Origin: Stegostoma tigrinum
Lineage: Eukaryota
Assembly: GCF_030684315.1 (NCBI RefSeq)
Contig: NC_081376.1
Location: 18,333,018-18,397,017 of the forward strand
Length of the DNA: 64,000 bases
Direction of reading: 5' to 3'
Both the position numbers and the translations under genes were made by a program. Below, piece after piece: positions 31,893 to 64,000 of this stretch. Within the stretch, counting starts at the first letter, position 1. Each line of letters opens with the position of its first letter. Under the pieces are notes generated by a model. The model saw only the letters and a list, made by a program, of their open reading frames with translations, was not told the DNA's origin and did no database searches.

Positions 31893-32279
31893 CTAAGAGT
31901 CAGATGACTTGACAATGGTGATGACACTGGTGGTTGGAGTGGGGCCCTTGGCCATAGTCCGAGCATAGTTCTGGAGGGCTTCGTACTTGCACCGCAGACC
32001 ATCGAGTTCCAATCTCATGTTGGCATTCTCTCTGGTCAGCTTTGCCACCTCCTGCTGGAGGTCAGCCCTCTGTCGCTGCAACTCCTCTTTTTGCGTCACA
32101 CGTTTGACCCGGCAGCTGGCTGCGTAACCTCGGTTCTTCAGTGTCCGCCTACGCTGCTTCAGCTGAATAATCTCCTCTTTGCTCAAGCCTCGCAGGTGTT
32201 GGTTCAGCTCTCGGACTGTCATGGAGACCAACTCCTGGTCACTGAGTGTCAAGGCATTTTCACCGACCTCCTTCTTAAC
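31893..32279 (-). CDS. mafk: Small Maf bZIP transcription factor (MafK/MafG-like), last coding exon (128 aa + TAG)
   Basis: Translates [31 protein letters not shown]...[28 protein letters not shown]...[13 protein letters not shown], i.e. the small-Maf extended homology region, basic region and zipper. Acceptor (minus) tctgattacag|GTT at 32281-32280, phase 0. Family is certain; mafk versus mafg orthology is not. Confidence 0.93.
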
Positions 32280-33664: not shown

Positions 33665-33700
33665 CTTTGTTGCTTTGCTTCCTTTGGGATTAGCCGTCAT
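33665..33700 (-). CDS. mafk: Small Maf first coding exon (MTANPKGSKATK); whole exon 33665-33740 including 40 nt of 5'UTR
   Basis: ATG at 33700-33698, 12 codons, donor AAG|gtgag at 33664, acceptor gtgtttgcag at 33742-33741. The 36-nt first coding segment matches vertebrate MAFK/MAFG (MTTNPKPNKALK / MTTPNKGNKALK) and joins in frame to the next exon. Confidence 0.92.
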
Positions 33701-35706
33701 TACCCCAGCAACATCAGAGATTAGAGAGACAGAAGTACACCTGCAAACACCACAAAATAAGAAGCATAAACGATCATTTCAGTCTTTCATCATTAAAACA
33801 AAAGTGAGCAGGGAGTGGTTCTTGTGGTGCAATTCTTATGTCCCAACCTCCGAGCCAGGAGGCCTGGATTCAAGTCTCACTTGTTCCACAGGGGTGTAAA
33901 ACCCATCTCTGTACAGGCCGATTTGGAAATATGTGAAACAAAATCGGCATCTTCCTTTCCATCAGAGAACTGTGCTGGTACACCTTTCATTGCTGAGGTA
34001 GCCTATATAGCTCAACCATCTCAGCAAACTTACTGATATCCCTTCAGATTTACAAGTTTTTCAATAAACAGCCAGAGTTTTCCATTGTACACATTAATTA
34101 GAGACTATGCAGGATCTTCCAAATAAAAAAGAAGTCACCTCAGGAACGTCCAAGCCTCAATGGCCCCATTGAGACAGCCACTTACAGCTGGGTCACCAGT
34201 CTTTCAATTGGCCTTGACAACTTAGACCAGAACAGCATCTCGGACAAAGCAGCCCACTCTAAACATTTACTCCTTCTGTACTAGTACCTCCTGGCTGCAA
34301 TGTGTATTCGTATGATGCACTACAACTCATATCTACTCCCAACCCTGTGATCTTTAGCCTTCATAGGGTTGACAGTAGCATGAGGATGGGAACAACAGCA
34401 TCTTCAAATCACAAATCCCTCTGTTTGGTCACACAATCAATCATTCTGTCAAAGCAACTGGGACAAAACTTCCCAACTAAGAGTACTGTGGGACTACTTT
34501 CCCCATTTGTAGGAGTTCATCAACCAGCAAAGTCAGCAATGCCACATCCTAAAGTAAATTACTTTGAAAGGTGCGTGTCTACGGTCCTGATTATTACCCA
34601 ATGAAGCTCAGTATTGTATAGAGCTGCTGGGTAAGGAAGGGATTGGGATTGGCTAAGCAAGGGCAGAGAGGACCGGAAGCCCCTCTGTAGCTGTACCCAG
34701 GCTGAGACAATGACATGGACGAAAATACTGTGTCCCATGGGGAGCATGTGCCCATCTTCCCACTCCAATGTCGATGCCCAATTTCATGACAAGACCAGAC
34801 TGTGACAAAGAGAACTTTCAAGTATATAGCACTTTTCAGAAACTCCGGATATCCCACAGCACTTTACCATTGCCATAAAGGAAATATTGCTCACTGGGAG
34901 TGTTTACCTTATTTAATTGGCTACCGTGCAATAATGATCAGATCATTTGCTTTAATTGCACTGGCTGATAGGCAATTAAATGTTCAGGACTCAAGGACAA
35001 ATTTCCCTGCTTTTTCTTTGAAGTATAGCATCGTGGGATCTTTTACATGCACTGGTGAAGGCAGATACAGCCTCAATTTAATATCATCCCAAGAACAATG
35101 CGACACTTCAACACTGCAGGAAGCAACAGTCTAGAGTTTATGTTTAAGTACCTTTAGTGGGAAATGCATCCAGATCCAATCACTCCCAAGCAGGTCCTAT
35201 TACTGCCAAAGTCCTAGTGCTGTGGAGGTCCCTTCTGGGGACTACCTGCCCCAAATTGAATCTTCATTGGGTTTCTAAGCCTCTGCAAGAACGTAATACT
35301 AAATTAACCCACATCACAGCCGAAAATGGGAATGTTTTCACTCCCCAAAATAGTATGGAGCATGATAATTTATAAATTGCACCATCCCTCACTATTTTTA
35401 AACTGTATTGGATAGAACTAGCAGCTCCCTCTGGCTGTTTTGTTGGGGTGTCGGGGTGATTGCTTTGTTTGCCCAGCATAAAATGCCAAAGCTCAAACCA
35501 TTTGCTTGTAGATGATTAGATTAAAGGATCAGGAAAACCAAAAGAGAGAGACATTTAAAGCAAGTTCCCCCACCCAAATACCCTCAAAAAGAAAGAATGG
35601 AAAAAATGAGACTACAAATAAACAAGAACTGCATTTAAAATGGAAGTGGTAGACGAGTGGGAGTGAGCATTTGGTGGTGTTACATGTGAGGCACGTTGTA
35701 ACTAAG

Positions 35707-37351: not shown

Positions 37352-38059
37352 TGTGTATACTGCATCCACTGTACCCGGTGTGGCATCCTCTACATTGGGG
37401 AAACCGAGCAGAGGCTTGGGGACCGCTTTGCAGAACACCTCCGCTCGGTTCGCAATAAACAACTGCACCTCCCAGTCGCAAACCATTTCCACTCCCCCTC
37501 CCATTCTTTAGATGACATGTCCATCATGGGCCTCCTGCAGTGCCACAATGATGCCACCTGAAGGTTGCAGGAACAGCAACTCATATTCTGCTTGGGAACC
37601 CTGCAGCCCAATGATATCAATGTGGACTTGACCAGCTTCAAAATCTCCCCTTCCCCTACCGCATCCCAAAACCAGCCCAGTTCGTCCCCTCCCCCCACTG
37701 CATCCCAAAACCAGTCCAACCTGTCTCTGCCTCCCTAACCTGTTCTTCCTCTCACCCATCCCTTCCTCCCACCCCAAGCCGCACCTCCATCTCCTACCTA
37801 CTAACCTCATTCCACCTCCTTGACCTGTCTGTCTTCCCTGGACTGACCTATCCCCTCCCTACCTATACTCTCGTCTCCACCTATCTTCTTTTCTCTCCAT
37901 CTTTGGTCCGCCCTCCCCCCCCTCTCTCCCCTTATTTATTCCAGAGCCCTCTCCCCATCCCCCTCTCTGATGAAGGGTCTAGGCCCGAAACGTCAGCTTT
38001 TGTGCTCCTGAGATGCTGCTTGGCCTGCTGTGTTCGTCCAGCCTCACATTTCATTATCT
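37352..38059 (+). mobile_element. 5'-truncated Penelope-like element (GIY-YIG end + pLTR) in Maf intron 1
   Basis: Near-identical to 9790-10520. TSD tgaataaagc(c/t)gg at 37339-37351 and 38060-38072. Confidence 0.9.
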
Positions 38060-38384
38060 TGAATAAAGCTGGGTATTGCTGGGGGGGAAAAAAAAAGGGA
38101 CACATTGAGGTTCTTTTTCTCTCTTGCATTCATCAGAACAGACAAAAATTCCAAATTTCAAAAGGAACAAAAGCTTACTGTGCATGAGAAAAGGGTGCTG
38201 ACTGGTTGGCCAGTGGATTCTGATTGGTTTAGGTGTATTCATGGAGAACACACCATAGTAGCGTTGTCTCTAGTTGTTATTTAATTAAACAGAGCCTAGT
38301 CATTTGCTTTCTGTTTGCAGAATACAGGGTCTTACCCCAAAAGGATTTTGTAACATTTATGTCAAGGAGGGTAAATGGATTCTC

Positions 38385-44200: not shown

Positions 44201-45280
44201 ATTGTTTACAGCACAGTAACTGCACAAAGTCAGAAGTCCAACTGTAGACATAGAACATATATTCACCCAGCATATATTTAAATGTATCAAAAAACTATGC
44301 ATTGGCACTAATCACGACTCAGATACGGGTGTATTATAAACTCAGCCATTTCTAGAGTTACTGACTATGCTGATAGAATTGAGATTGCAGAAAGCACCAG
44401 AACAAAGTGATGAGTCATCATGTTTACCAAGGATTTAGCTTACTCAGATACTGCATGTATGCTGGATTAGAGTCAGACCACAAATATGCATTACCAACAG
44501 CAGAAAGCAAATAAATTGAAAGTTGACCACTGTTAACATTGTACATTATTGCATTTTGTTTTTGACTTTGAAGGGGTTTAGATGCAAAATGCAGATAAAT
44601 GATAGATCAGTTTAGAGCTATAGAGCCATACAGTACGAAAACAGACACTTTGGTGAAACCATTCATGAAACCATTATCCCAAAATAAACTAGTTCCACCT
44701 GCCTGCACTTGGCCCGTATCCCTCCAAACCTTTTTTTATTCATGCACTTATCTAAATCTCTTTTAAACGGTACCCATACATATAAACGTCTGTAGATATT
44801 TCAGGTTATTTAACTAATAGGCTTGGATAAGCTGCCCTCCATGAACTTAGTTCCTTCTAGATCTGGAATGTGATTTGTTCCTGCTCAGAGAATGACAAGT
44901 GCAAAGAACAGACCAATCAGAAAGTCAGGACTCACAATACATTCTTGAATATAGGCCATAATCAGAAGCCACAAATATAAAAAGTCTGAAATTGATGATA
45001 ATTTTCTTTTACACAGTATCATAGAATCCAACATTCTTGTCCAATACCCAGTTTCTCTCCTCATGCCAGTCTCTTTCACAGTATCCCGAACACTGGGGTC
45101 ACTTTCAGCGTTCAGTCGCCTAATACCATCTTTCTCTCAGAATATTCATTCTCTGTCCTGAAACCTGCTCCCTTACGGTTTCTGCCAAAGTCTCCCAATG
45201 CCTATTTTCTTTCCCAGTGCTCACTCTCTCCCGTTGCTCACACCTAGTGCCCTTGTTCTGTGCCTATGCTTTATTTATAA

Positions 45281-45520
45281 GGGTGGCTCAGTGGTTAGCA
45301 CTCCTGCCTCGTCGTGGTAAGGACCCAGGTGCAAATCTACCCTCTAACCACCTTCTACTTGTGTCTGGGTGGGTTTCCTCTGGGTGCTCAAGTTTCCTCC
45401 CACAGTCACAAAAGATGTGTAGGTTAGGCCATTGGTTGGATAAGGTAAGCTGCTCTTTGGAGGATCAGTGTGGACTCAATGGGCCAAGTGACCTGCTTTC
45501 CACTCTGTTGGAATCTAATG
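45281..45520 (+). mobile_element. Degenerate HE1/V-SINE
   Basis: gtggctcagtggttagcact...gggtttcctctgggtgctc..tttcctcccacagtc. Confidence 0.75.
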
Positions 45521-45979
45521 ATATCCCAGTCTTTCAATGCCTGTTCATTGGACCTTGTGCTGTCTGTTTCAGAACCTCTCTCTGAGTCATACGTTCTCTG
45601 TCTCTCTCCCTGTTCCCCCCAGAGCTCTCACACTCTCTCTTCCTAGTGCCAGTGCTTTCTGTCTGGGTCTATTTCTCTTTCCCAGTGCCCATTATACACT
45701 CACTCTATCTTTCTCTCTCTCCCAGTGCCTATGCTGTATTATCCTTCTCACTCTCTCCGTATTTCTCCCGGTGTCCAGTCTCTCTTGTGCTCACCCTCCC
45801 CGTACTCCCTATCGCTTTGTCTCTGCCTTTTGACTATTTTCCCACGGCCTATCCTCAGCCAGTGCCCACCATCTTCCAGTATCCATGCTATTTCGCAGTA
45901 TTTCAATGCCCGCAGTCTCTCCCAGTTACTGATTATGAATAATTGATTACAGCAGGACAAACACGTAGATGAAGAAGCA

Positions 45980-46170
45980 GGCCCCTCGCCGGCCGGCAGT
46001 CCGCGCCCCTACCTGTTGGGAACGCGCTGTCTCTCCTTCTCTCGGTGCGGTCCCTCACTCACTCACAGAAGCCAGTTCCGGGAGCGCTGACGTCACCCGC
46101 TGTTTGCCCATGTGACTTCATTCATGAACATTCCGGCAACGTCACAGGGACCTCAGGTGGCGGGAAAACG
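45980..46170. promoter_or_regulatory. Small CpG-rich promoter / probable non-coding exon 1 of the Maf gene (possibly bidirectional)
   Basis: About 17 CpGs in 190 bp against a CpG-poor background. Perfect CRE TGACGTCA at 46088-46095, E2F site GGCGGGAAA at 46159-46167, ETS cores TTCCGG at 46076 and 46131. Minus-strand donors CAG|GTAGG at 46012 and GTGAGT at 46066/46062. An abrupt AT-rich flank starts near 46190. Confidence 0.7.
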
Positions 46171-47094
46171 AAAATAATCCCCAAAGGAAAGAAATACTGA
46201 ATATAAAGTTCATATCAAATACTTAATTTAAGTTATATAATTATTACTCAGTCCAAATGCTAAAATACTACGTTTAAAATATAGAATATAAAAATGTATG
46301 AGCAATATAAATCTATTACATAAAATTTTTAAGTAATTGATATGTGAAGCTGAGTATAACTTATATGCAGGCTGCTAGGTGAAACACAGTATTGAATATA
46401 AGTTATATACAGTGTGCCATATGTAAATTCTTTATTCAATTCTGAATATAAATGAGTCTTTCACATAAAATTGGAAAAATTGTGTGCAGAAAATCAAAGA
46501 TGTTAACCTAGATTCTTTGTACAGCAGGCAGAAGGTAGAATTCTCTGGCACAAAGCAAATTTGAAGCAAATTTCGTAAATTATTTTGGAAGAATGAGTTC
46601 ATTGAAGAGAAATGCTAAAGGCTACCACAAATGTATAGTGGAGTGGCGTCAGACTGGATGGGTCATGTGGTAGGTGAAGATAAACACCAGATCTGAAGCC
46701 GTGCTATAAGTTGTATAAGTTTTTTGGATACTTAAACAGTGATGGTATCTTTAAATGAATGAATGGTAAATCCATCTTCTCTAGCTACTTTAAGGGTGGC
46801 CACTCGATTCAAGTCACAGCTGACATTAAACTTCATGGGAAGTTTAGTCAACCCTCTGATGTAATGTATAAGGAAGATGGGTGGTACATAAAAGGGCATA
46901 AGAAGTAGTCAAATTGGCACTTAAACCCCCATGGTTCACTGACATCCTTCACTTACCATGCTCATTGGGCCTAATTGAAGATATTACTGCAGTCACCAAC
47001 AGAGCTGATTTTTTTAAACGATCAGAAACCTATATATTTCCGACTCAGAGGTGTTAGTGTTACAACCAAACAACAATGATTGTTTAACAAAAAG

Positions 47095-48625
47095 TGTCCT
47101 CTTTGTAGGTTACGTGGAACAATCCCTCTTCCGTACCTACACTGGCCCTAAACCCCACCTCTTCCTCCGTTACATTGATGACTGTATCGGTGCCACCTCC
47201 TGCTCCCAAGAGGAGCTTGAACAGTTCATCCACTTCAAAAACACCTTCCACCCCAATCTCAAGTTCACCTGGATCATCTCTAACACATCCCTCACCTTCC
47301 TGGACCTCTCTGTCTCCATCTCAGGCAATCATCTAGAAACTGACATCCATTTCAAGCCCACAGCTACCCAGAATACACCTCCTCCCACCCACACTCCTGC
47401 AAAAATTCCATCCCCTATTCCCAATTCCTTCGCCTCCACCGCATCTGCTCCCAGGATGAGGCATTCCACTCCCACACATCCCAGATGTCCGACTTCTTCA
47501 AGGACCGCAACACCCCCCCAAGTGGTCAAGAATGCCCTCGACTGTGTTTCCCGCAACTCGTCCCTCACAGCCCGTACCCGCCATAACCGCGAAAAGAGAA
47601 TCCCCTTTGTCCTCACATACCACCCCACCAACCTCCGGATCCAACTCGTCATCCTCCGACACTTCTGCCATCTACAATCCGACCCCACCACCAAAGATAC
47701 TTTTCTATCCCCACCCTTGTCTGCTTTCCAGAGAGACCACTCTCTCCGGGACTGCCCTGTCCGCTGCACACTCCCCTTCAAGCCCACCACACCCAGCACT
47801 TTCCCCTGCCACTGCAGGAAGTGCTACACTTGCCCCTACACCTTCCCCTCACCCATATCCTAGGGCCCAAGAAGACTTTACACAACGAGCAGATGTTCAC
47901 CTGCACATCTTCCAGTGTGGTATACTGTATCCACTGCACCCGGTGTGGCTACCTCTAAATCGGGGAAACCAAGCGGAGGCTTGGGATCATTTTGCAGAAC
48001 ACCTACGCTTGGTTCACAATAAACAACTGCACCTCCCAGTCACGAACCATTTCAACTCCCCCTCCCATTCCTTAGACGACATGTCCATCCTGGGCCTCCT
48101 GCCGTGCCATGATGATGCACCCGAAGGTTGCAGGAACAGCAACTCATATTCCGCTTGGGAACCCAGAAGCCCAATGGTATCAATGTGGACTTCACAAGCT
48201 TCAAAATCTCCCCTCCCCCCACTGCATCCCAAAACCAGCCCAGCCCGTCCTCGCCTCCCTAACCTGTTCTTCCTCTCACCTATCCCCTCCTCCGACTTCA
48301 AGCTGCACCTCCATTTCCTACCTACTAACATCATCCGGCCCCCTTGACCTGTCCATCCTCCCCAGACTGACCTATCCCCTCCCTACCTCCCCACCTAAAC
48401 TAACTTCTACAGGCTCCATCCCCGCCCCTTTAACTTGTCTGTCTCCTCTCCACCTATCTTCTCCTCTATCCATCTTCGATCCGCCTCCCCCTCTCTCACT
48501 ATTTATTTTAAAACCCTTCTCCCCATCCTCCTTTTCTGATGAAGGGTCTAGGCCCAAAACGTCAGCTTTTGTGCTCCTCTGATGCTGCTTGGCCTGCTGT
48601 GTTCATCCAGCTCTACACCTTGTTA
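47095..48625 (+). mobile_element. Penelope-like element fragment with RT C-terminus, thumb, GIY-YIG and pLTR (frameshifted)
   Basis: FLRYIDDC RT motif, HPNLKFT, LTFLDLSV, RIPFVLTYHP, then the same 3' end as the other copies. The hammerhead GAAA is mutated to AAAA. Confidence 0.9.
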
Positions 48626-49190
48626 ACCCGTACAGGCACATTTTCCATTATGGAGTCAGTTAACACTGATCAGGAGAATGCCTGTCCACCAGCTATAAAG
48701 AACATAACAGGATTGTGATGAAATAAAAACCAATAGTCAGATTGGTGCAGCTGTGATAACACTCAAATAGCTCACCACCACAAAGGCAGAACAACCCACT
48801 TGATTAGCACCTCAGCCACCACCGTAAGTGTTCATTCTCTTCACTACTGAGACACAGTGGTAGCAGAATATACCATCTACAAGAAGCACTGTAGTTACTG
48901 ATGAGATTCGAAAAGGCTGGTTTCCCAGAGTAAGAAACAGTTCACTACTGTGCTGTCTGGAAGATTGTAAATGACACAGAACACATAAAGATTAGAGCCT
49001 AGACTACACTGGATACACACAATAAACGAAATGTGGACTGAAAAAGCAAGCACAATGTAATCTTACAACCAGTTTACAACCAGGATTATGAAATAGGTGA
49101 AGAATGAAAGCTAGAGAAATCTTACTGAGCTCTGTCCCCAAAAGCCCATCCACCCATGACATCATGATCTCCATCACAGAGAGTAAGCAG

Positions 49191-49975
49191 TGTTGTGAAG
49201 TTGGGTAGAGTACTTGTGGATCAGGAAGCAGGAAGTTAGAATTTCGTGTTTGTAAAATGCTAATGGTGGTGGGAAAGCATTGTGTGGTCCCTTTAAAAGA
49301 TGATCTGCAATTTGAACCAGGCACTTACATACCAAAAACCAATCAAATTTAAATCTAATGGTTTTGATAACATAGGACCAATCCTATTGTAAAAAATATT
49401 GATATGTCATCAAGGGTATAAAAAGAAGGGGGCAATTGGACAAAGTAGCAGAGCTAACTGCCAGAGTTAATAGTTATCAGCTCTCAACAGAGTCTCTCAC
49501 AGACTCTTCTAGATAATAGAGAAAGCACATCTAAATAACAAAGGTACTTACAGCACAACTTGTGAATATTCTTGACCAAAGAATTTACGGAGAAGGCATA
49601 GAGCATTCCAGAAGAAATGTAACCTGGCTGTAATTTTGAGAGATTAAATTCTGTTATTTTTAATATAAAAAGAACATGTATTTATTGGGAGAGCGTACGA
49701 TTAGAATCTTGTTTCATTTGGGAATAGTTAAGTCGTGAAAGGGAGTTTATTCAGTTTGTTAATAGTTTAGTTAATTTGTTTATTGTTAAATAAACAAATA
49801 AATTATTACTTGTTGATGGTAAAGTGACTGTCAGGGATTTATTTTATTTAACCAGTAGAAGTTGTGGAAAGGCAGGTTACACTGCTTTTGACATTCCTTT
49901 TACAGATTATACAGCAAGGCACCTCTTTGAGGGTTTTAGTTCTCAGAGCAGGGAGTAAACCTACATTTTATAACA
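49191..49975 (+). mobile_element. Solo LTR (785 bp)
   Basis: TGTTGTGAA...TTTATAACA termini (TG..CA, imperfect inverted repeat), 4-bp flanks gcag/ggag, two CCAAT boxes, TATAAAA at 49417-49423 and AATAAA at 49789-49794. Confidence 0.7.
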
Positions 49976-52900
49976 GGAGGCAGGTCTTGAATCCAGCAGA
50001 ACAGGGATTGAACCCTGTGCTATTAACGCCAGCCTGATCCTCTCCAACCAACTGAGCCAACAAGTCTCCCAAGGAGTTCAAGTTGCTGTGGTAGCATATA
50101 CTTTTACATGCACATCGTATCCTGGAGCTATGGACAGTGATGGTAGAAGCTTCAATTTTATTTCATCACGTGAATATCACCTTCGCATACTGCCTATCAT
50201 TGGCATATGTTGAAAGGATTTATTGGCTGTGTTATGAATACACTATTCCTAGCTTTCAAATGCTGGAGTGGTATTTGGACCTGTAGCCTCAGTCTGAAAT
50301 GTATTACTGTGTACCACAAGACTTTTCACAACCTTAAGATATTGCAAAATGCTGTACATCTAAGCAAGTCCTTTTCAAGGAACAAAATCAGAAATTGCTA
50401 ATTTGGGTCCTGTGACCCTTCTTCAGAACTCAATTCTATATATGGCTATACTCATCACACATTTGACCAATAGTTTGGAAATGCCTCATTTAGTGATGAA
50501 ATCACTTGCTCAAAATAGTAAATCGTAAAAGCTGTGCAAACCAACATTTTATGAGATCTAGGTGTCATCAGAGCCTGCCCTTAGACCTAATTCTGTCCTT
50601 CCTCCAGTGCTGTCCCAGTCTTCCCCCACCGATGGGCCTGCCTGTATTCTATAAAGGAATATTTATCACAAGATTTCTCATTTACATTAAGCTTTTGATT
50701 GGGATCATTTATGGCATGAATTGTCTGAATCACAAAAAGACAATATAATAATAAAAATTAAATACACATATTAAAGCAACAAAATCAGGTTTATGTCGAA
50801 TGGTAGCTGGAAAATTAATTCTGAGTTCAATTCAGAGGTGAAATTATGGACTTAAATTTGGCATATAAATTCAAGTTGCATAAATAAATGAAAATTAAAT
50901 TGGTACCTTTGAAACTTGTAGACATAATCTGTAGATAATATCTATTTTCAATAAACATAGAGAAAAGGTACCACAGAAAGCACAGTTTCAAAATTAAAAC
51001 AACATGAGTTGTTCGGCATTGAAGAGGGACACCCATCCCAGACTTGGTCTCATGGTCCTAGCATTATTTAAGTTTATTCTGAACAATCAATTACCCTGAA
51101 TATAGGATACATTGCAATCAGTTTACCTGGAATAAATTCTTACAAATAGCACATAGTCTGTTTTCAGTGCTGGCCGATGGACAAGCACATGCCAGGTCAA
51201 GGGGAGAAATCTTTGCTCTTTTTTGAACTACTATCATGGGAGTTTATTTTATGCCCATCTAAGACGGACAATGGAGTATAAACCAAAACTATTGAAACAC
51301 TCAGGGTCTGGCAGCACCTGTGGAGCAAGAAAAAAAATTAACGTTTCAAAACTTGTTTTTTTTTGTTTGTTTCTGTTTTTGTTTCAGATTTCCAGTATTT
51401 TGCTTTTGTGATGCAGCCTTGGTTTAACATTGCACCCAAAGGCAGCACCTACAGACCATCAATACTACATTTGAGTGTCAACCATGCTTTTGTGCTCAGA
51501 TCTCTGGAGTGGATGTGTTCCTCCGTCTTGGAGTTGAGGAAGGGATATGGCAGGAAGGTCTTTGAGACCAATCAGTAGGCTTGTTTGAACTAATTACTGT
51601 TCATAAAAATTCCTATGTCATTGTGCATCATTTTACTCCATTGCAACTCAAAGGCATGTACTATAATCAAGGTAAGTGGCATAGTATTTATTGGACTGAA
51701 ACACTACTTGTCGTAAATAGAAGTAACAAAGCAACAGATTTACCAATTACAATGTACTTCTCGCCTGAGTAATTGAGACATATAGCGCAGGAAGGTGAGA
51801 GACGCTAGTCTGACTCTGTGCAGTGTTAATCAGTCTTGGTGATAACACTGGTGAGAGGGTGGTTGGTGCACTTGTTAGTCAGAGGGAAGAAATTAGATTC
51901 TTTCTTTTGATCAATTTCCACCAATCCCTTTTGGATAGATGTTTATGTGAAGATTGGGTGAAAACAACGATAAGATTTAACAGAAAATCCTTTTGCTGTC
52001 CCTCTGTTAGTGCAGTAAGATGGTTTGTCATGCTCTATATCAAGATTCATGTGTGATATGGATGAAAGTCACTTGGCTGAATCAAAATTTCACAGCACAC
52101 TGGAGTCCATTTGACCATTGTACATGTGCTGACTCTTTCAATCAGTTCTTCAGTCAGCACCATCTCTCCCTCTTCCTGTTTTCTCCCTACAATTCTTTAA
52201 TTATCTAAGTCACATTTGAAATATTTTCGTTGATTCTGCTTCAGCTATCCTCTTCAGACAGTGCATCCCAGATCATCACAGCATACAGTGTGAAAGAAAC
52301 TCATGTGTCCTCAGGCTTTTTAGCCAATCATCTTTGAATTGTGTCTTCTGTTGGTACCTCCCCCACCACATGAACAATTTCTCCTTATTTATTCTATCAA
52401 CATTTCTCAGGAGGTACGATGAGCTACTAAAAAGTACTTTGAGCATTAGGGAGAGGAGGAAAAGGTTCTTGGGTTCTAAATTCAGGATGTCTTATCCAGT
52501 CAGTGGTTTACTTTTGAAATGTAGTCATTGATGTACTGTGGAAAACGTGGCAGCCAACGTTTGCATAACAACTCCCACAAACATAATCTAATGATGATCA
52601 GATAATCTGTCTCTGTTGCTGATTGTATGGGAAAACTCCACTGCTTTTCTTCAAAATTTCCTATTTTTTATTTCTTACCATAAATAGAAGTAACAAAGCA
52701 ACACATTTACCATTGAGACATATAGAGCAGGAAGGTGAGAGATTCTGGTCTCATTCTGTGCAATGTCAATCAGTCTAGGTGATAGTGCTGGTGATAGAGG
52801 GTGAAATTTTTTTTAAATTTTACCAATTTTTCTAAATATCCTGTTCAGAGATGATTATCACACATCTCTGAAGCAGGTGGGACTTGAACTTGGGCCTCTT

Positions 52901-53629
52901 GGTCTAGGGGCAGGAACACCACCACTGCACCATTAGTGGGCCCTTTATGGGATCTTTTGCATCCAGCTAAGAAGGTAGACTTAGTTTAATATCTCAACCT
53001 CGTCCCAAAAACAGCATCCCAATTCCATCTTAGTACTGCAGTGGAAGGTCAGTGAAGAGTTTTGTATTCAAGTTTCTTGAGGGGACTTGAACCCACAATT
53101 TTCTGAATGAGAAAAACAGTGCTACCAACTGAGCCATAGATAACCCGATAGAGGAAGAAATACATGAAACGTTTGTATACATTTACTATGTTCTAATTCT
53201 CTACAGAGTACAAAAACAGAAATTGCCAGAGAAACTCAGCAGGACTGGCAGCATCTGTGGGAAGCAGAGGTAACATTTCAAGTTCCGTGACTCTTCATCA
53301 GTTTCTCCAGCAGTTTCTGTTTTTGTTTCAGATCTCCAGAATCCACAGTTCTGTGTTTCACATGTAGGGTTCAGTTCCTTTCAGTTGCAATTCCTCTCTT
53401 GAGAGCTCAACATTCAATGGCTCAGTACCACCACTAACAGGAATGTGATAGTACTACATCTCAGTGCCTGTTACTTATAACAAATTGTCAGTTTCTGTGC
53501 AGAGAGAAACACGGTTTAATATTTCAGGTCTTTCATCAGATCTGGGAAAAGTTAGAAATGTAAGAAGTTCTCAGTAAGCAAAAGTAACAAGGGTGGGAAG
53601 ATGAACAAAAGTAAATGCCTGTAATTGGT

Positions 53630-54829
53630 TAATAAAATGTGAAGCTGGATGAACACAGCAGGCCCAGCAGCATCTCAGGAGCACAAAAGCTGACGTTTCG
53701 GGCCTGGACCCTTCATCAGAGAGGGGGATGGGGTGAGGGAACTGGAATAAATAGGGAGAGAGGGGGAGGCGGACCGAAGATGGAGAGAAAGGAAGATAGG
53801 TGGAGAGGAGAGTATAGGTGGGGAGGTAGGGAGGGGATAGATCAGTCCAGGGAAGACGGACAGGTCAAGGAGGTGGGATGATGTTAGTAGGTAGGAGATG
53901 GAGGTGCGGCTTGGGGTGGGAGGAAGGGATGGGTGAGAGGAAGAACAGGTTAGGGAGGCAGAGACAGGCTGGGCTGGTTTTGGGATGCAGTGGGTGGAGG
54001 GGAAGAGCTGGGCTGGTTGTGTGGTGCAGTGGGGGGAGGGGATGAACTGGGCTGGTTTTGGGATGCCGTGGAGGAAGGGGAGATTTTGAAGCTGGTGAAG
54101 TCCACATTGATACCATTTGGCTGCAGGGTTCCCAAGCAGAATATTGAGTTACTGTTCCTGCAGCCTTCGGGTGGCATCATTGTGGCACTGCAGGAGGCCC
54201 ATGATGGACATGTCATCTAAAGAATGGGAGGGGGAGTGGAAATGGTTTGAGACTGGGAGGTGCTGTTGTTTATTGCGAACCGAGCGGAGGTGTCTGCAAA
54301 GCGGTCCCCAAGCCTCCGATTGGTTTCCCCAATGTAGAGGAAGCCACACCGGGTACAGTGGATGCAGTATACCACATTGGCAGATGTGCAGGTGAACCTC
54401 TGCTTAATGTAGAAAGTCATCTTGGGGCCTGGGATAGGGGTGAGGGAGGAGGTGTGGGGGCAAGTGTAGCATTTCCTGCAGTTGCAGGGGAAGGTGCCGG
54501 GTGTGGTGGGGTTGGAGGGCAGTGTGGAGCGAACAAGGGAGTCACGGAGAGAGTGGTCTCTCCGGAAAGCAGACAGGGGTGGGGATGGAAAAATGTCTTG
54601 GGTGGTGGGGTCGGATTGTAGATGGCGGAAGTGTCAGAGGATGATGTGTTGTATCCGGAGGTTGGTGGGGTGGTGTGTGAGAACGAGGGGGATCCGCTTT
54701 GGGCGGTTGTGGGGTGTGAGGGATGTGTTGCGGAAAATGCAGGAGACGCGGTCAAGGGCGTTCTCGACCACTGTGGGGGGAAAGTTGCGGTCCTTGAAGA
54801 ACTTGGACATCTGGGATGTGCAGGAGTGA
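53630..54829 (-). mobile_element. 5'-truncated Penelope-like element
   Basis: Reverse complement of the same family (FKDRNFPPTVV, RIPLVLTHHP, NVVYCIHCTRCGFLYIGET), with the pLTR at 53630-53720. Confidence 0.9.
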
Positions 54830-55081
54830 AATTCCTGCTTCCTCAGCAGAGAACTAAAAGGAGCTCTAGAAGATTGGTGCACAGAATCCTCTAATAAAGA
54901 CAGCTGTAGTGAAGTGAGTGTCACATTTCTTTCACGTTATGTCCCAGAGAATAATGAACAGTTACATTTTGACCTTGTGCTAGAAGAATTTCTGAAGATT
55001 ACTTTCAACCTCATGGGGAGGCAATAGCGTAGTGGTTTTATTGGTTGACTTTTCATCCAAACACCCAGCTAATTTTCTGAG

Positions 55082-55279
55082 AGGAAAAAAATTACAGATG
55101 CTGGAAATCAGAAGCAACACAGAAATTGCTGGAGAAACTCAGCAGAGAAAAGTGCTAATCTTTTCTTAGCTAAAATCAGTTCTGAAGAAGGGTCACTGAA
55201 CCACAAACATTAACTTTGCTTTTGGTCCACAGATGCTGCCAGATCTGCCAAGTTTTCCCTGCAATTTCTGTCTTTGTTT
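55082..55279. mobile_element. Fold-back mini-element of the second pLTR family inside a SINE
   Basis: Arms cagaaattgctggagaaact and agttttccctgcaatttctg, with a CTGAAGAagggtca core near 55182. Similar copies at about 42950-43070, 43350-43480, 51275-51400 and 53208-53357. Confidence 0.65.
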
Positions 55280-58200
55280 CTAATGTTTGAACCGGAGTTT
55301 GAATTCCACCATCGCGGATGGTGCAACTTGAATTAAGAGTCTAATTCTGACCATGAAATCATTGCAAATTGTCAGGAAAAACCCATCCTATTCACTAATG
55401 TCCTTTAGGGAAGGAAACTGGTCTAGCCCATACGTAAACTCCAGACCAACCAACAATGTGGTTGATTCTGGTCATTTAAGGATGGGCAATAAATGCTGGT
55501 CTAGTCAATGATATCTACAACTTGTGAGTGAATAAAAACAACTATGTTTACCTACACTGGAAGATGTTACAACACACAAGAACAAGGGAGCAGGAATAGT
55601 AATTTAACCCCTTGATCCTGTTCTTACACTCAGTTAGATCGTGGTTGATCTGCATCTTAACGCTTTGGTTCTGTAATCTTCACACCATGCTGAACAAGAG
55701 GTCTTATGTATGACCTTTGGCACATCTACAAAATGCCTTATGCTTGACTTAGCTGCTAAAACTTGCACTTCTGAGGCAGAAAATTGTGGGTTCAAGTCTC
55801 ACTACAGAGACCTGAGCTTAAAATCCATGTTGTCACTGTAATGAAGTACTGAAGGAGTGCAGGAATGTTTGAGTTTGGGATGAGACATTCAAATTTGTCA
55901 GACTAGTCAGGTTACTTGGTGCTATTTCAAAGAGCAGAGGAGTACTCCTCTGTGTTCTTGATCAATATTCACCTATCACCTAAATCAGATCATAGGGTAA
56001 TTATATTCCTGTTTGTAAGATCTTGATTGTATGTAAGTTGGCTGTTGCATTTCCCTCCTCAAAACTGTCCAGATATGTGTTTTGAAAATATTTCAATAAG
56101 TAGCTGCAAACAAATCCACTTTCTAATTCAAGTTAGCAGTTTCATAGCAAAAACTTAACAAATCAGAAAACAGAATTTTGCATGTTTTCAGAAAAATGTC
56201 TTTATTTACAAAACTATTTCCACTAATACATCACAACAGTAAGTTTGGAATTTGAATCTTTTTATGGTTCAAGTAACCTTGTCAGATCTGACAAATTGTA
56301 CAGATCATCGTTTAAAAAAAAACACATGAAAATTGGTTAGACACTGAAGGAGTACCAGTTTAGCTACACTGTAGCAAGTTCATCATTGACTAACATTCAG
56401 TGAGAACTGCAGTGGTAACTTAGCCTTAGTCCAACACAGAGTTAGCAGTTTAGTATTATTGTTTTCCCCCAGTAATAATCTTATAAAGGACAACAGTTGA
56501 ACTTGACTCCAGAATTGCAAGCCACAGAACTACCTAGTAGCCACATCCTGCAATTATTCTGCCACAGCTGACAGCAAAATTGAATGGGAATTGTTGATAG
56601 AATTCGTCACAGAATCCCTATGGTGTGTAAACAGGCCCTTTGGCCCAACAACTCCACACTGACTCTGAGCATCCCACTCAGAGCCATCCAATCTAGCATA
56701 ACCAATTTGTAGTCTGCACATCTTTGGACTGTGGGAGGAATTGAACCCAGGTCCCTAGTGCTGTTAGCCACCGGGCTGCTGAATACTTAAACCAATAGCA
56801 AGTAATTGTTGAAGTTGTGGAGAATCTTTGCCCACTGACCCAACATCCCAAAGACTCTGGATCCCATGGAAAATTCTTCTCCCACCCCCATCCCACTTTT
56901 TTAAAAAAAATAATTATAAAGTCATCACACCAGTCCACTAAAGAGGGAGAGTGCTTCATTGACTGTACATTTATTTTTGTGAAACTATAAGAAGCATATT
57001 AAGTTTTATCTTTATAGGGATATAGTTCAGCAAGGAAAGGTACGGCTTTGCTGACTTTCTAGAATAATGGTGACTTTACAATAAATTGTATTTTGGGCAT
57101 TTCTAAAATCATTGTCAAGCCTGTAACTGGTTAACCAGAGTATAAAGTAATTTGCAGGCAATCCAAATCGTCATGTGCCTCACAAAATTAAGATCTTTAA
57201 TTATAAGTCACTATTAGTCATTGTTCATGAATTGGGCAAAGCTGCACGACATCCAGAATGCCCATAACAACCCTAGCCTTTTTCTTTAATTCCTTCATGA
57301 GATATGCATGTTGCTGGCTGGACCAGTATTTATTGCCCATTTCTAATTGCTCTTGAAGGTGATAGTGAGCTGCTTTCTTGAACATTGCAGTCAGTTTGCT
57401 GTAGGTAGACACATGCTATTAGTTAGGGAGGGATTTCCAAGATGGTAATAAGAACATAACATGGAACACAGGGTTACAATCTTAGAATAAGGGAACCGTC
57501 CAAGAAGAGAGGTTTGTTTTACTCTAGGATTATGAATGTGTTGAAATTCTGAGAGATTTTGGAATTTTAAAGGATTGAGGAATATGGGAATGGTTTGTGA
57601 AAGTAGAAGGCAGCCTTGGTTGAATGGGCGAGTTGGGACAAATGGCTTATTTCAACGAGTGACAAGAGAAGGCTGCCTGAATATTGAGCCTCCTCTACTA
57701 TTTAATATCATTTTCACTTTGCTCCAACTCCTTTATTCAACAAGACCATGGTTATCTCCTATTTCAACGCAATCTTTGCACACTGTCACAAGATCCCTCA
57801 ATTTCCTTCATGTTCAACCTATACAGATCTCATTCTTGAATGTATTCAATTACTGAGCATACATAACTCTTAAGTTAGAGAATTCAAGGTTCAGTATCCT
57901 GAGAGATGATCATTTCCAACCTTAAACAGTAAATTTTCCAGAAATATTGAATTGGCTTAAAGAAAGATTTGTATTTGTATCAATGTGCTTTATGTCCAAT
58001 GAAGTACTTTAAATTATATTTAATGTTGTAATGTAAAGCAGCCAGTTTTCACACAGCATTATCGCAAACCACAACAATATACTTAGCCAAATAATTTTCT
58101 TTGAGTAATATTGCTTGAGGCATACATATTGGCCTGAATTCTAGGACACTCTCCTGTTCTTCCATAAGTATCATGGGATATTTTCAGACAACTTGAGAGA

Positions 58201-58635
58201 ACAGCTTGAGCCTTGGATTAATATCACATCTGAAAAACACCTAACAGTACCACGTTTCATCAGCACTAGAGCGAAAATGGGAGGTTTTGAAATTTGAAAG
58301 GCTCATGGTAAATGCACATTAATTCATTTTAACAAGGCATAACGTGGTACACTGAGGAAGGTGCTGTGTTCATGTCAAATGTGTCACACCTCTGTTGAGA
58401 TGTTACTACAAGATACTTGTCAAGTCAATGGCTGGAGAGAAGATGCTGGATCTGAGTGAATCAAATGATCACTGTGACGGATATTCGGTAGTCAGGTGCT
58501 GCAGACTAACACAATAACTTCAACCAGGCAGTAAACCCATGTGGTGTATGGATTATTTATTGTGCTTTTAAGAGTCAATTTTACGTTTGGTCCTCAAGAA
58601 TGAAGTTTGTACTCACTCATCATAGTCTTATTGCA

Positions 58636-58669
58636 AACTAACAAGTTTTTTTTTGGGTTTAATCCACAG
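58636..58669 (+). promoter_or_regulatory. Branch point / pyrimidine tract / 3' splice acceptor upstream of METTL4
   Basis: aACTAAC, then a T-run, then ccacAG ending at 58669, 231 nt before the ATG. Confidence 0.5.
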
Positions 58670-58900
58670 ATTTCCATATTGGCATTTGGAAGTTTCAGGT
58701 TTACAACCGAAGTAGCAGCTAATGATCTGCTGAAAACAGATTTCTTTATATACCTTTCAAACAAGTGACAGTGGAGGAGAGACAGTGGGGAAAAGGGAAG
58801 TGGGCTAGTTATTGGTGAAGGAAGAGTTTGAGTTAGCAGAGAGTGGAAGCAGGAGACGACGCTCAAGCAAACTCTGTTCTTGCTGCAAGCGTCGGGAGTG

Positions 58901-60181
58901 ATGTCTGTGGTCAAGAGTGACTCTGTGGGATGGCTACTGGATCACCAAGCCTACATCAACCAGTCGTACAGATGCTGCCATCACATTCCACCTGATACCC
59001 GATGCTGTCGATACATTTTCAAGGCAGCATATTTTGACATTGAGAAGCCCCATATTGGTGACACAGAATCAAAAGAAGACCAGGAGCCAGTGGGTGGAGA
59101 TTCAAGACCAAAAGGCAGAAAGCGCAAGAGGAAAAGTCATGCACTGAACCAAGGAGAAGTAGACGCAGAAGAATACCACAAACAGGTCAGCCTGACTATT
59201 CGGAATGGCACTAGAAAGCTGATAGAGCAAAGCACAGTCTCAAGGATACCAGTTGGAAGAGAATGCATTAAGAGACAAATCACTCCAGTGGCTGCCGACT
59301 CTATGTTGGTGGAGCTCTGCTCAATGGCAAAGCAGATGACACGTGAGCAATGCCACTCCGTGCAGGTAATTAGCAATGAGGCAGATTCCATAACAAACCT
59401 GAATCTGCTCGGCCACCTTACTGAGAATAGCACAGACTGTGCAAGAATTGTGATGTTGATGGGGCAGAGGTACTTACTTCCACCACACTCTAGCTTCCTC
59501 CTGTCAGACATCTCCTGCATGGAACCCCTCTTGGGCTACAAAAAATATGACGTGATTACTTTGGATCCACCCTGGGAAAATAAGTCAGTCAAGAGAAGCA
59601 AAGGCTACAGTCACCTCTTCCCTTGGCAGATCCAACAGATTCCTGTGCCAGCACTCTCAGCTCCAGGCTGCCTGGTGGTGAGCTGGGTCACCAATCGGCA
59701 AAGACACCTGCGCTTTGTCAAGGAAGAGTTATACCCTAGCTGGTCCGTTGACGTAGTTGCAGAGTGGCACTGGGTGAAGGTAACCCGGCATGGAGAGTTT
59801 GTGGTCCCTTTAGATTCCACCCACAAGAAACCCTACGAGATCCTGGTTCTCGGCAGGTATAAAGGAAGCCCAGAAAGACAAAATGGAGAACATGTCACTG
59901 AAACAATCACAGTGCCTGACCACAAGCTGCTGGTCAGTGTTCCCTGTCTCCTTCATTCCCACAAGCCACCATTAGGGGAGGCACTGAAAGGATTGACTAC
60001 TCCAAACCCTGAATGCCTGGATCTGTTTGCCCGAAATCTGCAGCCCGGATGGACCAGCTGGGGGAACGAAGTACTTCGATTTCAACATTTGGACTACTTC
60101 CAGGAGTTAAGCACAGGAGGAGATAGTGACTGCTGTATTCTCAGACAGTCATCTGCACAAGTCATTTCTCCTTCTTGTTAA
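58901..60181 (+). CDS. METTL4: METTL4 N6-adenine methyltransferase (MT-A70 family), single-exon ORF, 426 aa
   Basis: Starts MSVV..GWLLDH like human METTL4 (MSVV..GWLLDH). Contains KRKRK..NQGE, LMGQRYLLPPHSSFLLSDISCM, catalytic DPPW (59564-59575), WVTNRQRH, EWHWVKVT, HKKPYE, HSHKPPL and LFARNLQPGWTSWGNEVLRFQH. No stops or frameshifts. AATAAA at about 60318-60327. Confidence 0.96.
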   Translation: MSVVKSDSVGWLLDHQAYINQSYRCCHHIPPDTRCCRYIFKAAYFDIEKPHIGDTESKEDQEPVGGDSRPKGRKRKRKSHALNQGEVDAEEYHKQVSLTIRNGTRKLIEQSTVSRIPVGRECIKRQITPVAADSMLVELCSMAKQMTREQCHSVQVISNEADSITNLNLLGHLTENSTDCARIVMLMGQRYLLPPHSSFLLSDISCMEPLLGYKKYDVITLDPPWENKSVKRSKGYSHLFPWQIQQIPVPALSAPGCLVVSWVTNRQRHLRFVKEELYPSWSVDVVAEWHWVKVTRHGEFVVPLDSTHKKPYEILVLGRYKGSPERQNGEHVTETITVPDHKLLVSVPCLLHSHKPPLGEALKGLTTPNPECLDLFARNLQPGWTSWGNEVLRFQHLDYFQELSTGGDSDCCILRQSSAQVISPSC

Positions 60182-60596
60182 CAGCATCAGTGCTATCACG
60201 GTGGGTTCTTGCAAAGAATGAAACGGGGTTGTGGGGTGGGGGGGGGGGGGTGCGCTGGCACTTCTTGCTAGGAGGTAAAATATTAATTTTAAATTTACAT
60301 TGGATAATGGAAAAACAATAAATAAAAATATTTTTAAAAATTGATTTTTTTCATCTTTCAGGGGAGGGAGATTCCTGTTTGAAATCTGATTCTCACCAAG
60401 AATTTTATCATAATTCATGACCTCCATATCGCAAAGTACTTTCCAATCAGCAAAGCATTTTTGAAGGTGCAGTCAGTTGTAGGATATGCAAAAGTCAATT
60501 TTAACATGAGGTCCCATCTGTAACAGTATGATGGCACTGTAGCTAGTGTCTCTATCTTTAAAGGTGAAGACCCAGGGTTCAAATCCCACCTCTTCT

Positions 60597-61015
60597 ATAA
60601 TAAGACCATAAGACATAGGAGTGGAAGTAAGGCCATTCGGCCCATCAAGTCCACTCTGCCATTTAATCATGGCTGATGGGCATTTCAACTCCATTCTCCC
60701 CACAGCCTTTAATTCCTTGTGAGATCAAGAATTTATCAATCTCCGCCTTGACGACATTTATAGTCCCGCCCTCCACTGCACTCCATGGCAATGAATTCCA
60801 CAGGCCCACCACTCTCTGGCTGAAGAAATGTCTCCACATTTCCGTTTTAAATTTACCCCCTCTAATTCTAAGGCTGTGCCCACAGGTCCTAACTGTGCCC
60901 CGCCTAACTGAAACAACTTCCCAGCGTCCACCCTTTCTAAGCCATACATTATCTTGTAAGTTTCTATTAGATCTCCCCTCAACCTTCTGAACTCTAATGA
61001 ACACAATTCCAGGAT
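60597..61015 (-). mobile_element. CR1 3' end
   Basis: SLEFRRLRGDLIETYKI, FFSQRVVGLWNSLP and a (tcttatgg) tail. Confidence 0.88.
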
Positions 61016-61487
61016 CCTATAATGCCAGAATAGGTTGTTTTAAAATACCTATGGCAATGTGATGAACACGTAACTTGTTCTAGTGATGTTAGGTAAGAGA
61101 TTATATATTTGCTGGTGCACAAGAGAGGAACCCCCCCATTCTCTTTGAAATAATGCAGAGAAATAGTTAACATGCATTTCTTTTCAATATTTCTCAAAAA
61201 ACCACTACTTCAGATATTGTGGTACTCCTCACTGCTGTATTGGAGCATCAGCCTAGATTATGTGCTTAAGTCTGTGGAGTGGAGATTGAAACTAATCTTT
61301 CACTCAAAACAGTTCTACACAGTAAGCCAGGGTTGACGCTTATTCCAAATATCATCTCACTGCAGATAACTGATATTTCCACAAAGGAAGTGGTGCACTG
61401 TCGGGTTGAGTTGCTCTCCTGAGGTAGTATATTGCTTCCACACAGCAACTCCTGACCAGAGACATAAATGCCAACAATTCAGCATCA

Positions 61488-62590
61488 ATAAAATCAGAAA
61501 ATGCTGGAGAGACTCAGCAGGTCAGGTGCATTGGTGGGGAGAGAAACAAACTTAATGCTTCAGTTTTGTGGCCTTCCAGCAGAACTGGAGAAAAGTTAAC
61601 ATGTAATAGAGCGAGGATGAGGAGTCAGACAAAAGGATAAAAAGTCAGGGGATATGGAATGAGGGAAGAATTGGTTTTATAGGGCTGAAGGGAATGGTAA
61701 TGAAACAAGAAATTAAACAAAAGATGGACACAGAGCAGTGTGCTGCTGACAATGCAAAAATAAAAAAAAACAAAGCTAAAGAAAAAAGTAACAAAAAAGA
61801 CTAAGCAGAGATTGTGGACTGAAGTTGTTGAAATCTGTATCAAGCTGCAAGGCTGTGAAATACCTAACTGAAACAAAGGTAGTTCTTCTGAACCTTTAAC
61901 AAGCAGGAGAAAGACAAGTGTCAGCATGAGGAGAATGACAATGACCAGAGGCTTATAGTCATGCTTCAGGACCGAAAAGGTACCCAACCTGTATTTGTCT
62001 CCCCAGTGTGAAAGAAACTGCATTCTGAGCAAATACTTCTTACAGTCTAATCTGCTGTAAGTACAAATAAATTGTTGTTTCATCTGAAATGAGTGTTTAG
62101 CACTTTGGCTAATGGAGAGAAAGAGAGGAGGTTGAAGGGAAAGTGTTACATCTGCATTTTTATGGAAAGGTGCTGTGGGAAGGGAACAGTGTGTTTGGAA
62201 TGGAACTGGGTTTTACAGAGTGAATGATCCCTTTGATGTAGTGAAAGGTGAGGACAACAAAATTGTGTTACATGATGCCATCATGCTAGAGGTGGCAAGA
62301 AACGGTCTGTTGAATACATAAGCTGGTGGAGGTGAACAAAGTCTAGTGAAGGTACAATGAGTGAGTCAAGGATGTAACGAGTAGGGTGAAAAATTGAAAG
62401 CAGTTCAGGTACACTTGGTATCACCTCCTATTTGGAAAAAGGGAGAGGAATTAAAAGGGTGAATTGTTGAACAGGGTCAAATAAACAGGCAGAGGAGGAT
62501 GTTGGTTGATAGAAACTGGTTGAGCTTCTGTTTAAGGAAGAAGCAGTGAGCCCTCAAACCATCATGCATGGGGATTAGCATTTGGAAAGA
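61488..62590 (-). mobile_element. Old degenerate Penelope-like element of a second subfamily
   Basis: The 3' end resembles the 'gaaattgctggagaaactcagcagg' pLTR family. 62090-62330 aligns loosely with the PLE linker region at 54420-54660. Confidence 0.55.
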
Positions 62591-62612
62591 AAGTGTCAAG
62601 TTGCTGGTCTAA

Positions 62613-62827
62613 GAGATAAAGAGAACTGCAGATGCTGGAGAATCCAAGATAACAAAATGTGAAGCTGGATGAACACGGCAGGCCAAGCAGCATCTCAGGA
62701 GCACAAAAGCTGACACGTTTTGGGCCTAGACCCTTCCTCTGATGAAGGCTCTAGGCCCGAAACGTCAGCTTTTGTGCTCCCGAGATGCTGCAAGCCCTGC
62801 TGTGTTCATCCAGCTTCACACTTTGTT
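62613..62827. mobile_element. Fold-back PLE pLTR mini-element
   Basis: Inverted arms. 15-bp TSD aagttgct(g/c)gtctaa at 62598-62612 and 62828-62842. Confidence 0.85.
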
Positions 62828-64000
62828 AAGTTGCTCGTCTAACTGGATTCTGTGATATCAGTGCTAATTAGCAAACTACAACTGCCAACAGCTACCTTGA
62901 TAAATAATCAAGAAAAATACATTCCTATTCATGACTGTATCAGAGGGTTATCCTAAACTTGTTGCACTCTTGCAATAACCCTGTTTTCCATTGAAATAAT
63001 GCAAGTATCAAAATAGCAGCAAATAATTTTTTAAAAATTAACAACCAGACAAAAACAAAGTAAGACTCAGAGTCCAGTTGCTTCATAACAAAATTAGTCA
63101 TACAGTTCATAGCCCATAGTCATATAGTGTATACAATTATTCTTCCACTTTCCCCACAAATATTTAAATGCATTCACAGTCATTTAAACTAGAACGACTC
63201 CAATCCTTTAATCAATTTATAAAGCTCTACTTCCTGTTATAATGAAGAACGTAAACATGATGTAAACTGCTTAGGGATCCTGAATCTGGCTCAGTAGTTG
63301 CTGATTTCCTACAACAATTAGTTCTTGAAATTAATATAGTAGCGAGCACAAACAAACAGTTAACTACATGAGAGGTGGGCATAATTTGTGATTAGTTATC
63401 TGCTTTTCAGTATTTGCCTTTAAATTTGTAAATTCAGGGCCTGGCATGGAAGGATCACTTACCATCCGTACCTCCCCAAACAGCATCAGTATTGGTTATA
63501 CAGCACAGCAAGAGCACAAACACTGAACAGTATTCTTCTATTCACTGTCAAACTTAGGGTACCTGTTTGCTCAATTATTGTCCATTATTTAGCAAAGTGC
63601 ACAATAGAGTATTGTGTCCAATTAGACTGATCTAATCCGAATGTGCGTTCTCAGTGGTGTCCAAACACGTTTTTCAATCCAATAAAACACAACTTCCTCC
63701 CTTTTTGTTTAAAAACACGTCTTGGCATTTGTACGCCCACCATGTTGGAGGATGAAGGAGTCACAAGTGCAATGAGGCCACGTAATGTCAGTAGTTGTGG
63801 GCACAGACATCGGGAATGCATCACTATAAATTGTTATTTCTTTTAGCCAGAGTAATATTTTAATCAATCATTCATGAGGTGTCTGGCACAGGTGAGGTCA
63901 GTGGTTATTACCCATCCTAACTATACATGTGACAGTTGCCTTGGCCTTCTTGAACCACCAAAGTCTGAAAATTGAAGGTACTCCTGCACACTGCTGTTGG

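Follow-up and report, generated by a model that had tools for sequence, protein, structure and literature searches.

The closest described case to shark METTL4 is the SYCP1 retrogene of amphioxus, which, as outlined in its report (PMC5803294), resembles it in having a single coding exon at a new site, a multi-exon parent that was lost, a new spliced 5' UTR and a head-to-head neighbour. Parent loss, UTR exons and a promoter shared with CHIC have been demonstrated for SYCP1, as described in PMC5803294, whereas we infer the corresponding steps for METTL4, which also differs in that the promoter of its neighbour, MAFK, lies 12.5 kb from the coding exon. In mammals, orphan retrogenes include TRMT12, LCMT2, RNF113A and MARS2 and, as these are summarized in the two surveys, they are like METTL4 in that the retrocopy succeeds a lowly expressed housekeeping parent and is under strong purifying selection; TRMT12 and LCMT2 are RNA or protein methyltransferases, and RNA-modifying enzymes are among the known cases (PMC3548309, PMC4772013). 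Human METTL4 writes m6Am30 in U2 snRNA via its DPPW motif (bioRxiv 2020.01.24.917575). It lies beside NDC80, as the initial annotation of this locus had stated, and according to PMC2774331 the two genes use a common promoter, to which CREB binds. Judged by titles and abstract openings, none of the papers found by searching describes shark METTL4 as a retrogene, and the main text neither of PMC3548309 nor of two 2026 vertebrate-wide retrocopy preprints names METTL4, although the supplementary tables of the preprints may list the copy. The METTL4 gene described here is a real, very old and apparently undescribed case of a known process.

The locus was analysed in a stretch of 64,000 nucleotides of the Stegostoma tigrinum genome (the window, contig NC_081376.1), together with four sequencing runs (designated by X) that were aligned over 45000-61500; these come from relatives, none from S. 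tigrinum itself, and are RNA by guess only. The METTL4 features are the following.

58645..58669, + strand: likely 3' splice site of a 5' UTR intron, a T-rich tract and CAG (sequence; relatives' contig ends)
58670..58900, + strand: 5' UTR portion of the coding exon, 231 nt (sequence; contig ends in X2, X1 and X4)
58901..60181, + strand: METTL4 CDS, 426 aa, single exon (ORF, Pfam, homologue search)
59111..59134, + strand: basic KGRKRKRK patch, putatively a nuclear localisation signal, spanning an ancestral intron position
59546..60070, + strand: MT-A70 methyltransferase domain, residues 216-390 (Pfam)
59564..59575, + strand: DPPW catalytic motif, residues 222-225 (sequence, alignment)
60317..60322, + strand: AATAAA polyadenylation signal inside an A/T-rich patch (sequence; X1 contig end at 60302)

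In the ORF list of the window, the METTL4 frame runs from 58901 to 60181 (+) free of stops and frameshifts, and its best homologue is 86% identical across the full length (E 1e-252), so that it is not a chance ORF; the initial annotation had described a 426-aa METTL4 in one uninterrupted ORF with an intact DPPW, and both points hold. The protein is identical to NCBI protein P0145 and NCBI annotates the gene under the ordinary METTL4 name. The clustered database places the window protein (P0145/P0146) under a 53-aa lysine-rich ENA representative to which it is unrelated, with the result that homologue searches pass over it. Relative to X1, X2 and X8 (the runs spanning the site) and to Chiloscyllium and Hemiscyllium, residues 110-114 (59229-59240), in a variable linker, carry a 27-nt deletion that keeps the frame and is specific to the window species.

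All the sequence features tested place the protein in the METTL4 subfamily of MT-A70 (PF05063). The MT-A70 domain is found at residues 216-390 with an E of 4e-37, and the best solved-structure match is by far METTL4 itself (PDB 7CV6, E 2e-43), with other MT-A70 structures at 1e-6 to 1e-8 and METTL3 at 1e-5; the protein is closer to METTL4 than to METTL3, METTL14 or MTA1. The active-site residues given for Arabidopsis METTL4 in the structural report (D233, Y247, R278, K322, F361 and K364; PMC9512776) align to D222, Y236, R266, K309, H352 and K355 of the window protein, each of which is invariant in 20/20 elasmobranch METTL4 proteins. These include the hallmarks of the subfamily: the Phe-or-His of Gate Loop 2 (H352), the pocket lysine K355, Y236, R266 and K309. 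The domain, DPPW and substrate-pocket residues are common to window, human and Arabidopsis METTL4. The shark enzyme likely does the known job, N6-methylation of Am30 in U2 snRNA. Compared with amniote METTL4, the N-terminal region is shorter, and the window protein has a Cys-rich C-terminal tail. What sets it apart from known METTL4 genes is the single coding exon and its position beside MAFK rather than NDC80/YES1.

The ancestral intron state was deduced from exon borders read in pairs of protein isoforms, not in exon maps. A single residue directly ahead of KRKRK distinguishes duck METTL4 isoforms X1 and X2, the skipped part of an eagle isoform reaches as far as this border, and amphioxus X2 and octopus X2 skip a piece of 21-23 aa that extends from KRKR to EYH. 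Following HKPPL, duck X3 is one residue shorter and the sequence of amphioxus X3 departs from the others. A partial lamprey model begins at the KRKRK border and terminates at the HKPPL border. In window numbering, these borders put introns at about codon 73-75 (duck, eagle, amphioxus and octopus, with the start of the lamprey model), about codon 94-96 (amphioxus and octopus) and about codon 358-359 (duck and amphioxus, with the end of the lamprey model), and the window CDS reads through all three. Matching positions in birds, amphioxus, octopus and the lamprey model indicate that the introns predate vertebrates, so that multi-exon METTL4 is the ancestral form and the window copy has lost its introns. 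In agreement with their absence from the coding sequence, a hand count of entries named as coding isoforms gave 0/19 for elasmobranch METTL4 vs 24/32 for bony-vertebrate species. In Mobula hypostoma METTL4 there is one Lys fewer at 214/215, a point at which the length also differs among bony vertebrates; a slip in an A-run is the simplest explanation, and an intron at that point is a possible one.

The initial annotation had called the gene intronless, which is true of the coding sequence and probably not of the entire gene. Ahead of the CDS, a polypyrimidine tract is followed by an AG that finishes at 58669. Run X2 has a contig with its first letter precisely at 58670, one of run X1 aligns from 58668, preceded by 142 non-matching letters, and one of run X4 starts at 58680. 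These three runs come from related species and are RNA only by guess; the tract and the X2 and X1 boundaries argue for a probable spliced 5' UTR with its acceptor at 58669/58670. In run X8, from a third shark, a 7,072-nt contig is colinear through the acceptor, the entire CDS, which is unbroken, and the 3' flank, and is therefore DNA or unspliced RNA. In several species, one and the same METTL4 protein is listed under two to four or more RefSeq accessions, a pattern that would fit alternative untranslated exons. These accessions and the presumed RNA contigs of relatives are the signs that the gene may be expressed; no run recorded as RNA lists the stretch, which says nothing about expression. 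The 5' UTR contains one upstream ORF, of 3 codons, at 58722. At the other end, both the AATAAA and the A-rich patch at 60310-60340 (21 A and 8 T in 31 nt) that had been pointed out are present, the former at 60317. Since the patch encloses the AATAAA and another X1 contig (again from a related species, guessed RNA) stops at 60302, 15 nt before it, the best interpretation of the patch is that of a 3' processing region of METTL4; the idea that it was the leftover poly(A) tail of a retroposition was rejected, and with it the value of the patch as evidence for one.

Upstream of METTL4 lies a small Maf gene on the - strand, which is MAFK, its two coding exons translating exactly to the NCBI entry for Stegostoma tigrinum MafK, so the two genes are divergent (head-to-head). 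The MAFK features are the following.

31893..32279, - strand: final coding exon of MAFK, bZIP_Maf (Pfam, protein match)
33665..33740, - strand: MAFK exon carrying the start codon (33700) (protein match)
46013..46121, - strand: likely first exon/promoter block of MAFK, with a full CRE (TGACGTCA) at 46088 (skate match, donor, CpG o/e 0.9)

The block at 46013..46121 matches the N-terminus of skate MAFK X1 at 12/13 codons (E 1e-5) and is closed by a donor, CAG|GTAGGG, at 46013; its CRE is one of two full CRE sites in the window. The stretch 46083-46121 (-) is non-coding promoter sequence, conserved between shark and skate sufficiently to match a skate MAFK model that was mis-extended into it. Further on, the stretch at 43691-43786 (-), which is interrupted by a stop in the window, resembles the N-terminal extension of Chiloscyllium plagiosum MAFK X1 (E 2e-5) and could be an alternative 5' exon of MAFK.

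There are hints, and hints only, that METTL4 may share the promoter in this block with MAFK. A length of 4,332 nt is given for a Logan contig with full skate METTL4 (P0007) and again for one with spliced skate MAFK (P0286), the remaining contigs listed being of 1.4-2.8 kb (METTL4) and 1.1-3.4 kb (MAFK); should the two listings be one contig, the METTL4 and MAFK transcripts would overlap at their 5' ends. Together with the conserved promoter block and the binding of CREB at the human METTL4/NDC80 promoter, this hints at a tentative scenario, to which we give rather less than even chances, in which the sole U2 m6Am writer of chondrichthyans would be a retrogene that left the bidirectional NDC80 promoter, took over the MAFK promoter, with its CRE, on the strand opposite to MAFK, splices across about 12 kb with 5' ends overlapping those of MAFK, and has been kept since before the chimaera split. 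If true, one bidirectional promoter would have been exchanged for another, and modification of a splicing RNA would be tied to MAFK regulation. With an approximate donor matrix, no strong + strand donor was found at the MAFK promoter (best scores of 3.2-3.3 at 46669 and 46765), and a donor-like CAG|GTGGCG near 46152 scored below the cut. The top-scoring + donor, at 51671, was not called because it adjoins a bin without cover in 4/4 runs. No METTL4 exon upstream of the acceptor was located.

Besides the window species, 20 chondrichthyans were found to have METTL4, and MAFK could be placed in 16 of them (Cetorhinus, Carcharodon, S. canicula and Pristiophorus being outside this set). Using METTL4 and MAFK contigs of identical size and the order of RefSeq accessions as markers, linkage was found in 16/16. 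Identical contig size accounts for 14: Chiloscyllium plagiosum, Hemiscyllium, Heterodontus, Mustelus, Scyliorhinus torazame, Heptranchias, Mobula birostris, Hemitrygon (through an unnamed cluster member), Hypanus, Narcine, Pristis, Leucoraja, Rhinoraja and Callorhinchus. Accessions no more than 6 apart were found in 11 of the 16, which brings in C. punctatum and M. hypostoma; in Mobula birostris the accessions are consecutive (XP_072124497 / XP_072124498). For Callorhinchus, where both genes are on a contig of 16,789,714 nt, Pristis, with a gap of about 1000 between the accessions, Heptranchias, S. torazame and Hemitrygon, linkage means the same contig, not adjacency. The same comparison gave 0/3 in bony vertebrates (Bufo bufo, Acipenser ruthenus and Caretta, all with contigs of different size, the two Caretta entries possibly coming from different assemblies), and Microcaecilia has METTL4 and MafF on a same-size contig, which shows that equal size is a weak marker on large chromosomes. 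Exon structure was read in DNA for the window genome and the X8 contig, and is extended by inference to rays and Callorhinchus. In Rhinoraja, the same protein (P0127), named METTL4-like, is present on two contigs, either a recent duplicate or an assembly duplicate.

The simplest reading of this distribution is a single origin of the METTL4-MAFK arrangement in the chondrichthyan stem. A narrow reading of the lineage-specific relocation that had been proposed does not agree with an arrangement reaching from carpet sharks to rays and Callorhinchus: the event is class-wide and much older than first thought. Holocephalans split off about 410-420 million years ago and, if this date applies, METTL4 is older than the mammalian orphans, from which it also differs in gene and lineage.

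Several observations support purifying selection on the single-exon METTL4, as far as sequence comparison can tell. Mean identity among the 20 elasmobranch proteins is 0.88-0.89 in catalytic blocks vs 0.58-0.60 in linkers. Bony vertebrates show this profile too (0.79-0.80 vs 0.34-0.40). The CDS diverges less than the flanks, both in X8 (9.8% vs 14.1%, p 0.006) and in X1 (4.0% vs 6.6%, p 0.010), with flank pieces that are few, partly UTR and selected by the cut of the alignment tool. In a neutral simulation, copies free of stops numbered 24/5000 at 9.8% divergence and 5/5000 at 14%. The 20 elasmobranch proteins form one clade (100/100), with subgroups that follow species groups and branches not longer than those of bony vertebrates, as expected of a sole METTL4 copy. 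Callorhinchus METTL4 joins them with an SH-aLRT of 94, on a long, GC-biased branch; this sequence (P0292) is labelled partial, has a Gly/Ala/Pro bias and evolves fast (branch 1.39). It also carries a low-complexity insertion just ahead of the DPPW strand, and the DPPW and C-terminal motifs are kept.

The rest of the window is rich in decayed repeats, as had been noticed at the start: retroelement fragments flanking METTL4 are broken, repeat copies are 65-99% alike, and a truncated LINE reverse-transcriptase fragment at 12641-13766 (+) has its RVT_1 split over two frames, with an open stretch of 325 codons. A repeat of 0.7-1.2 kb is present in four copies (9468-10520, 37348-38060, 47459-48638 and 53616-54836), 77-93% alike, with a shared short terminal unit that recurs many times in the window; the repeat is very abundant in the aligned runs, and no Pfam family was found in three of its ORFs. 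A VEFS-Box match at 14519-14776 (+), with an E of 4e-4, was below the cut-off, lies in apparently decayed LINE sequence and was taken as chance. No host-gene Pfam family was found in 142 ORFs (139 on the + strand in 1-31800 and 3 repeat ORFs). Exons of INTS1 and TMEM184A, which we take to be the human neighbours of MAFK, were not found by eye in the three + frames of 60181-64000, and splice-flanked ORFs gave nothing convincing.

We consider it likely that an orphan METTL4 retrogene replaced its multi-exon parent in the chondrichthyan stem. A spliced METTL4 mRNA would have been reverse transcribed, probably by LINE machinery, and the cDNA would have been inserted beside MAFK before sharks, rays and chimaeras split. 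A new promoter would then have been captured via a new 5' UTR intron splicing to 58670, the multi-exon parent would have been lost from the NDC80/YES1/ADCYAP1 site, and the retrocopy would continue as a SAM-dependent m6Am writer of U2 snRNA. Ancestral coding introns have been lost at all three positions deduced from the outgroups, and the location differs from that of the multi-exon orthologue. As far as the locus was inspected, neither a target-site duplication nor a poly(A) relic was identified, and neither is expected to survive such age. Retroposition followed by purifying selection, as first suggested, is supported by the domain-shaped conservation, the lower divergence of the CDS and the lost introns.

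Of the two outcomes originally offered, a relocation or a second copy, relocation is favoured. A multi-exon parent surviving elsewhere in cartilaginous fish genomes, unannotated or missed, is improbable in our estimation, even though most retrogenes coexist with their parent (PMC4772013, in its general account) and homologue searches do miss real METTL4 members: the true Callorhinchus orthologue ranked outside the best 120 of 1492 matches and the window protein was hidden by clustering, so a parent could be missed too. Against it, no second chondrichthyan type was found among those best 120 of 1492 matches, the cluster look-ups and 150 representatives, and a search with the N-terminus of Callorhinchus METTL4 matched only itself. 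All the elasmobranch rows among the matches listed (10/10), with the cluster members, are the MAFK-side gene where testable, and 17/18 NCBI elasmobranch entries bear the plain METTL4 name, not '-like'. Among the representatives, 5 of which were traced to named entries, 42/150 scored nearer shark references, 41 of them by no more than 20 bits at low identity, and the only one clearly closer to shark than to bony references is Callorhinchus METTL4, on the MAFK contig. The ordinary branch lengths of the elasmobranch proteins also speak against a second copy.

About as improbable, perhaps marginally more so, is that recombination with its own cDNA stripped a never-duplicated gene of its introns at the original site, and that this gene was separately translocated to MAFK at the DNA level. 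The end state would be the same, insertion hallmarks are absent now, and the original first intron might survive as the 5' UTR intron; this route nevertheless needs two rare events against the one, plus a loss, of retroposition, has to remove together three traceable introns spread from codon 73 to 359, and would have moved METTL4 with no other host gene among the 139 + ORFs in 1-31800. That the single coding exon beside MAFK is the ancestral state of jawed vertebrates, with introns gained and the gene moved in bony vertebrates, had been foreseen as a challenge to retroposition and is very improbable: position alone gives no direction of movement between two sister groups, yet the intron positions that birds have in common with amphioxus, octopus and the lamprey model predate their split. 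A recent processed pseudogene yet to decay, the other challenge foreseen, might be imagined from a single-exon CDS among retroelement debris, and is the least credible of all, given orthologues open in the 20 other species (sharks, rays and one chimaera), invariant active-site residues, a constrained CDS with domain-shaped conservation, and a species-specific 27-nt deletion that preserves the frame.

The proposed replacement by a METTL4 retrogene gives no sign of new biochemistry. Few retrogenes are on record as having replaced their parent, and this one would join them as a very old case spanning the whole class, the second likely chordate one resembling amphioxus SYCP1. As a rare genomic change, the move would group sharks, rays and chimaeras together, and orthology assignments based on synteny will miss METTL4 in cartilaginous fishes. 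These animals also offer a natural test of whether METTL4 needs introns, coding isoforms or co-regulation with NDC80.
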